From Escherichia phage ECO111 5-P: a stretch of 64,000 bases of DNA. Positions 30,890 to 32,050 of this stretch are shown here, piece by piece (position 1 is the stretch's first letter; the number at the start of each line of letters is the position of its first letter). The notes beneath the pieces were generated by a model. The model was not told where the DNA came from. It was given only the letters and a program-made list of their open reading frames with translations, and did not search any database. The DNA is taken from the sequence record OR844765. One strand, given 5' to 3'. Position numbers and translations under genes: made by a program.

Positions 30890-32050
30890 ATGAATACTTT
30901 TAAAATCGGAACGAATTTTGATTTAGCTCTTCTTGATAAAATCGTAGAGCTCAATAAAACCTATCCTAATAGCTTGATAAACGAAGTATATGGCTCTACA
31001 AGAGAAATGGCTTTTGTAGCAGCCAGACCTGATTTTAGGCTTCCTGACGTTGACAAAAAGATGTTAGAAGACTACGTTAAACGTTGTAACGAATTAGGTA
31101 TTTGCTTTAACTATACACTCAACACGATAAATCCTGGTTCAAAAAGAGAACTAGTTGAGTGGAAGAAGAAAGCTATTCAGGATTATGTTCAGTATCTTTG
31201 GTCAATAGGCGTATGGCGTATTACTATCGCTAACCCTGTTGTTATGGAAATTGTTCGTGAAGTCAATAAAGACATTGAGATTGAAGTTTCAACAATTCTA
31301 CATGTCGATGCTGTAACTCAAATCAAATACTTGCATGACCAATATAATATCAAAAAGGTCTGCTGTGGAATTCATAAGAACCGTTCAGTTTCTTTCCTGA
31401 AGCGTGCAGCAGAGTTTTGTAATAAGAACAATATAATATTTGAAGTTCTTGTAAATGAGTTCTGTTCTAATGCTGGTAAAGGGTATACAACACATTGTAG
31501 CTATCGTGACTCTTGCTATATTTTCCATAGTACTGATGTTACAGCTGATGATGCTAAATCCTTAAACGGATATCCTATGCAGCACTGTATTAAAGCTCGT
31601 GATACAGACCCATTTAACTGGTTGAGAACTCGTTTTGTTCGTCCTCAAGATTTGAAACTTTATAATGATATTGGTATCACTCAATTCAAAGTTTCAGGAC
31701 GTACAGGTAGCACAGACTACATTTTGAAAGTTCTTGAAGCATACGCTTCTGAAAAGTTTGAAGGTAATTTGTTAGAACTGTGGAAGCCTTTAGAGACTAT
31801 TTTCACTCTTGAAAATGAGACTGAGTTTTCACATACAGTAAATATTGAAACCTCTTTGTTAGATGGCTTTTTAGAAAAAAGGTGGTTCAGACATCCAGAT
31901 TTTGATTGTGCTAATGAAATCTGTGGGTCAACGTGTACATATTGTGAAAGGTATTATAAACGTCAATTATCTAAAAACGGGTTAGCAGAAAACTCCATAT
32001 CTATTATTGATATAACTAACTCTGATGACGCTTTGAGGTACCCGGAATGA
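30890..32050 (+). CDS. hypothetical enzyme (386 aa) with Cys-rich motifs, function unknown
   Basis: Internal Cys cluster (CSNAGKGYTTHCSYRDSCY) and C-terminal CANEICGSTCTYC; part of the sugar-nucleotide cluster. Confidence 0.55.
   Translation: MNTFKIGTNFDLALLDKIVELNKTYPNSLINEVYGSTREMAFVAARPDFRLPDVDKKMLEDYVKRCNELGICFNYTLNTINPGSKRELVEWKKKAIQDYVQYLWSIGVWRITIANPVVMEIVREVNKDIEIEVSTILHVDAVTQIKYLHDQYNIKKVCCGIHKNRSVSFLKRAAEFCNKNNIIFEVLVNEFCSNAGKGYTTHCSYRDSCYIFHSTDVTADDAKSLNGYPMQHCIKARDTDPFNWLRTRFVRPQDLKLYNDIGITQFKVSGRTGSTDYILKVLEAYASEKFEGNLLELWKPLETIFTLENETEFSHTVNIETSLLDGFLEKRWFRHPDFDCANEICGSTCTYCERYYKRQLSKNGLAENSISIIDITNSDDALRYPE

Follow-up and report, generated by a model that had tools for sequence, protein, structure and literature searches.

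Within a 64,000-nucleotide (nt) stretch of the genome of Escherichia phage ECO111 5-P (sequence record OR844765), referred to here as the window, a 386 amino acid open reading frame (ORF) occupies exactly 30890..32050 on the plus strand, from its ATG to its stop codon. We analyzed this ORF, the orthologue of RB69 ORF050, and its product, which is called the U32 protein below after its protein family. The surrounding segment is T4-like, with the genes for the clamp loader gp44/62, RegA and DNA polymerase gp43 followed by an inserted gene cluster and then by UvsX and gp41. A preliminary description made from the sequence had placed the ORF inside a sugar-nucleotide cluster, and it does lie in this sugar-nucleotide/DNA-modification cluster, between gp43 and UvsX. 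The 6.6-kb cluster was 97.7-98.4% identical to those of Mosigvirus genomes, which are relatives of RB69, with the best match to PhAPEC2, and it shows orthology and synteny with the arabinosyl-5-hydroxycytosine cluster of RB69 (gp45-gp55) and HY126 (Afh). The guanine-plus-cytosine (GC) content is uniform across the window (0.35-0.39), thus the cluster is not a compositional island. Nothing supports a minus-strand ORF of 85 amino acids (31963-32220) that overlaps the U32 gene, and it is probably spurious.

The protein is as rich in cysteine as had been described, with 13 Cys residues (3.4%, compared with a window median of 1.1%), the third highest content among the 68 plus-strand ORFs of at least 100 amino acids. 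An internal set has the arrangement C192-x10-C203-x5-C209-x23-C233, with additional Cys residues at positions 158, 159 and 177, and the C-x3-C-x2-C noted previously near the C terminus proved to be part of a four-Cys motif, CANEICGSTCTYC (residues 340-352; C340-x4-C345-x3-C349-x2-C352). Across 121 homologues with identities down to 48%, residues C158, C192, C203, C209, C233, C340, C345, C349, C352 and H213 were invariant. C203 and C233 were again invariant among 135 cluster representatives of 27-50% identity, 134 of which had C192. At the position of C209, 89 representatives had Cys and 45 had His, and 127-129 retained the four C-terminal Cys residues. This invariance across homologues shows that the Cys pattern is beyond chance.

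The ORF matched the Pfam family Peptidase_U32 (PF01136) with 42.2 bits, compared with a gathering cut-off of 22.4, and PHROG 5757 was matched end to end. A hidden Markov model (HMM) of the subfamily, which comprises 1,187 cluster representatives at E <=1e-3, matched the E. coli U32 enzymes TrhP (1e-16), RlhA (7e-15) and UbiU (5e-10), with no significant match to UbiV. A single-sequence phmmer search of the PDB returned only noise; the U32 structure 5D88 was reached only by a profile search, in which it was the sole match (2.5e-7). The AlphaFold2 (AF2) model of the protein is confident (pLDDT 94.4, pTM 0.93) and shows an alternation of strands and helices, and its best Foldseek match in the PDB was also 5D88 (E 2.6e-7, TMt 0.71), with generic TIM barrels ranking next. 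Both model and profile point to the same structure, and we hold with very high confidence that the protein is a U32-family metalloprotein and not a protease. The coordinates of the gene, its motifs and the neighboring features are listed in Table 1.

Table 1. Features of the U32 gene and of related genes in the window
Feature	Position	Strand	Basis or remark
U32-family protein gene, predicted Fe-S protein; RB69 ORF050 orthologue	30890..32050	+	ORF, Pfam PF01136, PHROG 5757, HMM, AF2, Foldseek, dN/dS
Pfam Peptidase_U32 region (residues 94-286)	31169..31747	+	TIM-barrel core, including the family-wide 'FKxxGR' motif (K267, R271)
Internal conserved Cys constellation and invariant H213	31463..31588	+	Loop of the [4Fe-4S] ligands CX6CX15CX3C in canonical U32 enzymes, other spacing
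C-terminal Cx4Cx3Cx2C, subfamily-specific putative second metal site (Fe-S or Zn)	31907..31945	+	pLDDT ~95-97
SIS-domain arabinose-5-phosphate isomerase	27944..28579	+	RB69 gp55 orthologue
Bifunctional sugar-1-P nucleotidyltransferase/kinase, AfhE-like	28761..30446	+	RB69 gp52:53
HAD-type sugar-phosphate phosphatase, AfhF-like	30431..30832	+	RB69 gp51
79-aa ORF, RB69 ORF049 family	32047..32286	+	4-nt overlap with the U32 stop; not chorismate mutase, which lies at or beside this site in sister genera
ThyA-like 5-hydroxy-dCMP synthase	32329..33045	+	RB69 gp48 orthologue, FMN/O2 route; Pfam Thymidylat_synt
DNA arabinosyltransferase 1	33045..33944	+	RB69 gp46:47 orthologue; homologues co-occur with U32 in non-T4 contigs
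Thymidylate-kinase-like nucleotide kinase	33945..34493	+	RB69 gp45 orthologue; homologues adjoin U32 in non-T4 contigs
Anaerobic ribonucleoside-triphosphate reductase NrdD	11266-13083	+	Pfam NRDD 572 bits and glycyl-radical domain
Radical-SAM activase NrdG	13080-13550	+	Fer4_12 167 bits

Four conserved Cys residues fill the canonical Fe-S loop of the family with the spacing CX10CX5(C/H)X23C, and the C-terminal Cx4Cx3Cx2C is not found in E. coli UbiU, UbiV or TrhP. Since characterized U32 members bind a [4Fe-4S] cluster through four conserved Cys residues, the earlier suggestion of a metal or Fe-S center is well supported by homology to the U32 family and by the two conserved four-Cys constellations, and the phage protein would be expected to bind Fe-S. 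A radical S-adenosylmethionine (SAM) reading of the CX3CX2C was rejected: the protein had no Radical_SAM Pfam match (E <=0.1), though the NrdG of the window does match, and the motif (345-352) is C-terminal to the barrel and within the four-Cys Cx4Cx3Cx2C.

Of the proteins of the cluster, the U32 protein is the most conserved, with 82-88% identity to the window across genera and the lowest ratio of nonsynonymous to synonymous substitution (dN/dS) in the cluster, 0.02-0.07. The corresponding values are 72-82% and 0.07-0.13 for the ThyA-like synthase, 48-68% and 0.05-0.32 for the arabinosyltransferase, 41-73% and 0.05-0.32 for the gp45-like kinase, and 68-88% and 0.01-0.20 for UvsX. The U32 gene is under strong purifying selection.

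The name peptidase is wrong for U32 proteins, as the known chemistry of the family is the C5-hydroxylation of pyrimidines and of quinone precursors. UbiU and UbiV are [4Fe-4S] proteins required in three O2-independent hydroxylations of ubiquinone synthesis, and prephenate, which is made by the chorismate mutase domains of PheA and TyrA, is the oxygen donor for them, as proven by 18O labelling (PMC10990095; PMC11574389). RlhA, which forms ho5C2501 in rRNA, and TrhP, which forms ho5U34 in tRNA, are also O2-independent and need prephenate (PMC10990095; PMC11574389; PMC6599085; PMC5727448). The family consists of twelve subfamilies, most of them uncharacterized (PMC10990095; PMC11574389).

The DNA of RB69 contains arabinosyl-5-hydroxycytosine, and not arabosyl-hydroxymethylcytosine as first supposed (PMC13326640). 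Its precursor 5-hydroxy-dCMP (5hodCMP) is made by the ThyA-like gp48, the only characterized synthase. It binds flavin mononucleotide (FMN), 18O2 labelling showed O2 to be the source of the oxygen, and the homologous 5hodCMP synthase of HY126 has been reconstituted with O2 (PMC13326640). The ThyA-like protein of the window is 97.9% identical to the HY126 enzyme. UDP-arabinofuranose is produced from ribulose 5-phosphate (Ru5P) via a SIS isomerase, an AfhE-like kinase/nucleotidyltransferase and an AfhF-like phosphatase (PMC13326640), and all three enzymes are encoded in the window. The same publication summarizes He et al. and gives gp50 no assignment, and its Discussion cites the RlhA and ho5U papers for pyrimidine hydroxylation in RNA, without a tie to RB69p050. 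A published study of Thanatos modelled the U32 protein (TH1_065) and gave no function. Thomas 2018 and the Durham paper leave the gene undiscussed, and a Tn-seq preprint contains no gene-level data on LC53 or Bas46. We found no report in the searchable open literature that ties a U32 protein or a chorismate mutase to phage DNA modification, and the GenBank labels for the gene are 'peptidase', 'collagenase' or 'hypothetical'.

The U32 gene was found by tblastn in 221 phage records, all with at least 80% identity and with hosts belonging to the Enterobacterales or to Shewanella. T4 itself is not among them, consistent with the initial failure to see a T4 match, and the positive records are T4 relatives of the arabinosyl-5-hydroxycytosine (5hoC) type or Shewanella phages. 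The ThyA-like synthase was present in 373 records, including 57 Acinetobacter and ~20 Rhizobium phage records, as well as Agrobacterium phages, in which the U32 gene is absent. Phages of facultative anaerobes carry both U32 and the ThyA-like synthase, and phages of aerobes (Acinetobacter, Rhizobium) have neither U32 nor chorismate mutase. The HAD and ThyA-like genes of Acinetobacter phage fHyAci03 are directly adjacent, with the module of U32 and chorismate mutase precisely missing between them. The cluster of Dhakavirus VR5 (L012 2854-7589; L numbers designate loci) retains the AfhE-like, HAD, kinase, ThyA-like and glycosyltransferase (GT) genes, with the kinase before the ThyA-like gene; the SIS isomerase is absent, and this minimal cluster presumably relies on host KdsD/GutQ for arabinose-5-phosphate. 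A SegB-like homing endonuclease lies between the HAD phosphatase and U32 genes in Winklervirus and Tegunavirus (L001:4352-4990 in LC53 and L025:707-1345 in phiR1-RT), an insertion absent from that site in the window. There, the gap 30833-30889, just 5' of the U32 gene, is the one intergenic gap of any size in the cluster, and a sigma-70-like TTTAAA-16-TATAAT (10/12) occurs at 30806-30833 on the plus strand, ~57 nt 5' of the U32 start. Promoter and terminator scans of the region were not above chance (23 found vs 26.6 expected, and 4 vs 3.4, from shuffles).

A second gene accompanies U32 in related phages. The ORF overlapping the U32 stop codon passes the Pfam CM_2 (chorismate mutase) threshold in Serratia phage LC53 (44.6 bits), Enterobacter phage Entb_45 (40.9) and Shewanella phage Thanatos-2 (32.8). 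In a comparison by eye, these proteins retain the AroQ residues equivalent to R11, R28, K39, E52, S84 and Q88 of E. coli chorismate mutase. Chorismate mutase was found in 56 phage records and, among the matches listed, always inside the modification cluster. Of 24 T4-like loci, 19 of the 22 with U32 and neither of the two lacking it had a chorismate mutase, and the order U32 then chorismate mutase was seen in 19 of 20 non-Mosigvirus T4-like loci. In Thanatos-2 (L003:6001-7391) the pair follows the kinase gene and does not precede the ThyA-like gene, a displaced position which indicates that U32 and chorismate mutase were relocated as a unit.

The 79-aa ORF that follows U32 in the window was examined as a degenerate chorismate mutase and rejected. 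It had no CM_2 or NCBIfam chorismate mutase match at E <=10, the hhalign probability was 0.8% against six phage chorismate mutases, and both genes are present as separate ORFs in phiR1-RT, 92A1 and PM2. Genes of this ORF049 family were found in 162 phage records. The gene evolves fast (dN/dS 0.147), the copy in a Yersinia phage being 44% identical, and some Mosigviruses have it split into two BLAST pieces or shortened, which may reflect frameshifts. The 114-aa 'chorismate mutase' of Serratia phage LC53 starts with an ORF049-like N terminus (MRRINHTMNELV...), suggesting a remnant of ORF049 fused to the mutase.

Outside the T4-like phages, homologues of U32 at 48-60% identity were found in other viral contigs and in metagenome-assembled genomes (MAGs) from strict gut anaerobes (Lachnospiraceae, Romboutsia, Erysipelotrichales, Gastranaerophilaceae and Ruminococcaceae), the MAGs being the matches of a genome search that was seeded by a single protein (P0105) and reaches close relatives only. 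Among IMG/VR contigs, 15 contained both genes (all T4-like), 31 contained only the ThyA-like gene and 25 contained only U32 (seven of these being 128-230 kb), where the absence of the ThyA-like gene is that seen in a pattern-seeded scan of incomplete genomes. These 25 are non-T4 contigs in which U32 is accompanied by homologues of the arabinosylation genes of the window and often by a fusion of DAHP synthase and chorismate mutase.

We also performed a census of the genes neighboring U32 at 36 non-T4 loci. By clustering, a homologue of the arabinosyltransferase together with a gp45-like kinase, sometimes fused, was found at 24 of the 36 (16 for the GT and six for the kinase by phmmer), while an AfhE-like enzyme, a KdsC-type HAD phosphatase and a SIS isomerase were beside U32 at 13, 12 and 10 loci, respectively. 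The phosphatase cluster (c3) had been considered as an AfhF homologue, a candidate rejected at an hhalign probability of 0.2%. No flank of the 36 loci contained a 5hoC-type ThyA-like gene, the sole match (L046) being an ordinary thymidylate synthase (244 bits), and U32 is therefore the sole candidate there for the hydroxyl handle needed beside arabinosylation genes. Other U32 homologues have as neighbors dCMP deaminase, dUTPase/DCD, thymidylate kinase, NT5C, deoxynucleoside kinase (dNK) and DnaE. Two loci (L022:4474-12200 and L054) encode a gp45-like kinase, GT, U32, a TET-associated glycosyltransferase (TAGT, 33.9 bits), dUTPase/DCD, a 594-aa protein, a second TAGT-like protein and GLF, a UDP-galactopyranose mutase, with no ThyA or TET in the cluster. 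This layout suggests galactofuranosylated 5-hydroxypyrimidine DNA. In three megaphage-like loci (L004:7447-9086, on a 466-kb contig, L007 and L008), thymidylate kinase, UDG(-PHP), DnaE-type polymerase, dCMP deaminase and U32 lie in a row, and the dCMP deaminase directly 5' of U32 hints that deoxyuridine monophosphate (dUMP), and not deoxycytidine monophosphate (dCMP), may be the substrate there. A nucleoside-salvage-like island in a Bacillota MAG (OH_PDB_73; L005:8001-15428, identical to L014) contains U32, NT5C, a nicotinamide mononucleotide (NMN) transporter, a deoxynucleoside kinase, a tRNA-synt_2c-like gene, a radical SAM/SPASM gene, a second, divergent U32 paralogue (377 aa) and a nucleoside 2-deoxyribosyltransferase. 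In L023 and L024 a radical SAM/SPASM gene again adjoins U32, and in L004 one lies a few genes off.

Shikimate pathway genes adjoin U32 at eight of the 36 non-T4 loci. Five are fusions of DAHP synthase I-beta with CM_2 (L049, L050, L051, L052 and L016; c6 genes, e.g. L051:4324-5379), one is a chorismate mutase alone (L015:9285-9569) and two are DAHP synthases alone (L021:7145-7891 and L031:7080-7826). In the fusions the DAHP-synthase domain scored 113-125 bits in Pfam and CM_2 65-67 bits, and the stand-alone chorismate mutase scored 68 bits. The DAHP_synth_1 neighbor was also considered as a KDO8P synthase, a reading prompted by the arabinose-5-phosphate isomerase, and this was rejected, as DAHP-synthase models gave 150-237 bits vs 38-67 for KDO8PS, and CM_2 is fused to it. 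The phage-borne shikimate genes beside U32 apparently serve to boost the supply of prephenate.

Taken with the chemistry of the family, these associations make it likely that the protein is a C5 pyrimidine hydroxylase for DNA modification, when the level at which its substrate is presented is left wide. With moderate confidence we favor a more specific function, that of an anaerobic, prephenate-dependent dCMP 5-hydroxylase, a proposal built from homology and gene neighborhoods. The single-subunit Fe-S enzyme would then be the anaerobic counterpart of the FMN- and O2-dependent ThyA-like 5hodCMP synthase encoded two genes downstream, and it would allow the replacement of cytosine by arabinosyl-5-hydroxycytosine to continue in a facultative host without oxygen, for example in the gut. 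On the most economical reading of the distribution, U32 would be redundant in phages whose hosts are facultative anaerobes, missing from those of aerobes and, in those of strict anaerobes, the only route to the base. The presence of NrdD and NrdG in the window shows that this phage is equipped for anoxic DNA-precursor synthesis and already combines oxic with anoxic enzymes in supplying its precursors.

In the proposed pathway, chorismate would be converted to prephenate by host PheA/TyrA or, in most sister genera, by the phage chorismate mutase. The U32 barrel would bind dCMP and prephenate, and the internal four-Cys [4Fe-4S] site would mediate a two-electron oxidation of the pyrimidine, possibly with an electron relay through the C-terminal four-Cys site to a further acceptor. 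Decarboxylation of prephenate would deliver hydroxide to C5, yielding 5hodCMP and phenylpyruvate, with prephenate as the oxygen source as in UbiU/UbiV and as has been proposed for RlhA and TrhP. The gp45-like and gp1-like kinases would then produce 5hodCTP for incorporation by the polymerase and decoration by the arabinosyltransferases.

Several observations weigh against this proposal, in addition to the limits of the ThyA-like scan given above. The canonical CX6CX15CX3C is absent from the U32 protein and from all 269 subfamily members, as is a PROSITE-like signature, E-x-F-x2-G-[SA]-[LIVM]-C-x4-G-x-C-x-[LIVM]-S, validated on TrhP, RlhA and UbiU; RlhA and TrhP carry both patterns and UbiU carries the signature. 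Because the canonical motif is missing, the protein belongs to a divergent subfamily and is not a canonical U32 member. The mapping of the ligands is ambiguous, with UbiU C169/C176 and TrhP C170/C177 aligning to C192/C203, and RlhA C169/C176 aligning instead to C203/C209. The known substrates of U32 enzymes are RNA and a prenylated quinone precursor, with no free nucleotides among them. The window phage, a Mosigvirus, has no chorismate mutase, so its prephenate would have to come from host PheA/TyrA, and the prephenate link for this phage draws on sister lineages and host supply. Dhakavirus VR5, an E. coli phage, lacks both U32 and chorismate mutase, thus the gene is dispensable in some E. coli 5hoC phages, and the correlation with host physiology comprises few phylogenetically independent contrasts. 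No activity of a U32 hydroxylase has been reconstituted in vitro so far (PMC10990095). Finally, the single mention of RB69p050 in the study of RB69 DNA is a row of its Table 1, 'Sugar or heterocycle reductase', derived from fold matches to 5D88 (PMC13326640).

The U32 protein might act after replication, hydroxylating cytosine already in DNA in the manner of TET. Its closest characterized relatives, RlhA and TrhP, do act on bases in polynucleotides, and in L022 and L054 the TAGT (33.9 bits), whose usual partner is a DNA-level hydroxylating enzyme, directly follows U32. However, the C-terminal extensions seen in RlhA and TrhP are missing from the phage protein, and cytosine in RB69 is fully replaced through the nucleotide pool (by dCTPase, 5hodCMP synthase and dNMP kinase), which leaves little unmodified cytosine for such an enzyme. 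The thymidylate-kinase-like kinase is the most constant neighbor of U32, and dCMP deaminase, dUTPase/DCD, NT5C and dNK also point to mononucleotides. For these reasons of neighborhood and of pool-level replacement we infer that dCMP, and not DNA, would be the substrate; action on DNA seems unlikely.

The position of the gene, between those for sugar activation and those for base modification, together with a TIM barrel common to many sugar enzymes and the Table 1 label of PMC13326640, might be taken to indicate an enzyme that modifies arabinose or a sugar-nucleotide intermediate, or that reduces a heterocycle. We regard this as improbable. The route from Ru5P to UDP-arabinofuranose is complete without U32, Acinetobacter phages make arabinosyl-5hoC without it, no characterized U32 enzyme acts on sugars, pentose activation does not involve the chorismate mutase and DAHP synthase to which U32 is linked, and U32 is found in nucleotide-only contexts lacking sugar genes (L004, L007, L023 and L024). 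The preliminary description had proposed a modifying enzyme, and an oxidoreductase-like role in DNA modification fits that proposal; its alternatives of an epimerase, mutase or transferase completing the sugar-nucleotide pathway are not supported by the complete route or by the Acinetobacter phages, and the guess of a sugar enzyme probably does not hold.

Two conserved Cys sites would also suit electron transfer, as in a redox helper of the ThyA-like synthase, and the dCMP deaminase or dUTPase/DCD beside U32 in some contigs would supply dUMP to a hydroxylase of another nucleotide that makes a minor modification. Either role is quite improbable: the 25 viral contigs in which the pattern-seeded scan gave U32 no ThyA-like partner argue that it is no mere accessory of that enzyme, and the modified cytosine is the only modification reported in RB69. 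T4-like phages encode tRNAs and the best profile scores were those of TrhP and RlhA, as would be expected of a phage version of these enzymes acting on tRNA or rRNA, of the host or of the phage, to tune translation. Yet the C-terminal domains of TrhP and RlhA are absent, U32 is always within the DNA-modification cluster and is missing from T4-like phages that use hydroxymethylcytosine, and its companions in non-T4 phages are genes for DNA glycosyltransferases and kinases, making an RNA hydroxylase very improbable. A collagenase-like peptidase, the reading behind labels such as 'peptidase' and 'collagenase-like protease', can be set aside, as it reflects the historical name of Pfam PF01136 and MEROPS U32 transferred by name only, all genetically characterized U32 members are hydroxylation factors, and conserved Cys metal sites in a nucleotide-metabolism neighborhood are unrelated to proteolysis; the 'peptidase' or 'collagenase' label in hundreds of GenBank records is almost certainly wrong.

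The gene itself and the published fold resemblance to 5D88 are already known. In the searchable literature we did not find the assignment as a prephenate-dependent hydroxylase, the linkage of U32 to chorismate mutase and DAHP synthase, the partition among phages of aerobes, facultative anaerobes and strict anaerobes, or the clusters with U32 only. We give about even weight to the broader proposal that this is the first U32 enzyme known from a virus and the first to use DNA precursors as substrates, and that with its ~1,200 cluster representatives it constitutes a phage-borne anaerobic route to 5-hydroxypyrimidine DNA. If true, the U32 hydroxylases would include a viral enzyme with a new class of substrate and a new Cys architecture, and prephenate-dependent hydroxylation would extend from RNA and quinones to the building blocks of DNA, and from cells to viruses. 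An anoxic gap would be closed in a pathway described in 2025-2026, since the published route to 5-hydroxycytosine DNA needs O2, and this would explain how phages of gut bacteria replicate where their hosts actually live. Phages of strict anaerobes would use U32 as the sole hydroxylase feeding DNA glycosylation, often along with a DAHP synthase or chorismate mutase, and glycosylated 5-hydroxypyrimidine genomes would form a large reservoir, so far unseen, in anoxic viromes. The U32-only clusters would thereby bear on evasion of restriction and CRISPR, on sequencing bias in gut viromics and on phage therapy. As a small, single-chain protein with a soluble nucleotide substrate (dCMP being commercially available), the phage enzyme could also give work on U32 proteins the in vitro assay now lacking.

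Among known systems, RlhA (E. coli YdcP) shares the U32 domain and the change proposed here, from cytosine to 5-hydroxycytosine at C5, in an O2-independent and prephenate-requiring reaction (PMC5727448, PMC10990095), and the phage sequence 'C-SYRDS-C-YIFHS' aligns with 'C-VAYSGQ-C-YISHA' of RlhA. Unlike the 386-aa phage protein, RlhA has 653 aa with C-terminal extensions, modifies one rRNA base and has the canonical CX6CX15CX3C, whereas the phage protein has CX10CX5(C/H)X23C, the C-terminal Cx4Cx3Cx2C and a proposed deoxynucleotide substrate. TrhP (E. coli YegQ), the best-scoring characterized relative, also hydroxylates a pyrimidine at C5, and the dual logic of an O2-dependent and a prephenate-dependent enzyme proposed here is that of TrhO/TrhP (PMC6599085). 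It differs from the phage protein in being a cellular enzyme of 453 aa with a tRNA substrate, a C-terminal domain, the canonical Cys motif and the PROSITE-like signature. UbiU and UbiV belong to the same family and replace a flavin/O2 set (UbiI/H/F) under anoxia, and their heterodimer has two [4Fe-4S] clusters, the phage protein two Cys sites in a single chain; they are more weakly similar, have a lipid substrate and work with an accessory lipid-binding protein, UbiT. Mk0906 of Methanopyrus kandleri (PDB 5D88), the only solved U32 structure and the best fold match, has 247 residues, shares 12% identity and consists of the barrel only, without the C-terminal Cys domain.

Two further systems resemble the phage U32 protein in context and not in ancestry. 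The phage TET/JBP and TAGT modules likewise place a hydroxyl handle on a pyrimidine that an adjacent glycosyltransferase decorates, but TET is a non-homologous, Fe(II)/2-oxoglutarate- and O2-dependent enzyme that converts 5-methylcytosine (5mC) in DNA to 5-hydroxymethylcytosine (5hmC). The 5hodCMP synthase of RB69 (gp48) and HY126 shares with U32 both the cluster and the proposed product, yet it has a non-homologous thymidylate-synthase fold and requires O2. The proposed pairing of the U32 protein with this ThyA-like enzyme would mirror the pairs TrhO/TrhP, UbiIHF/UbiUV and NrdAB/NrdDG.

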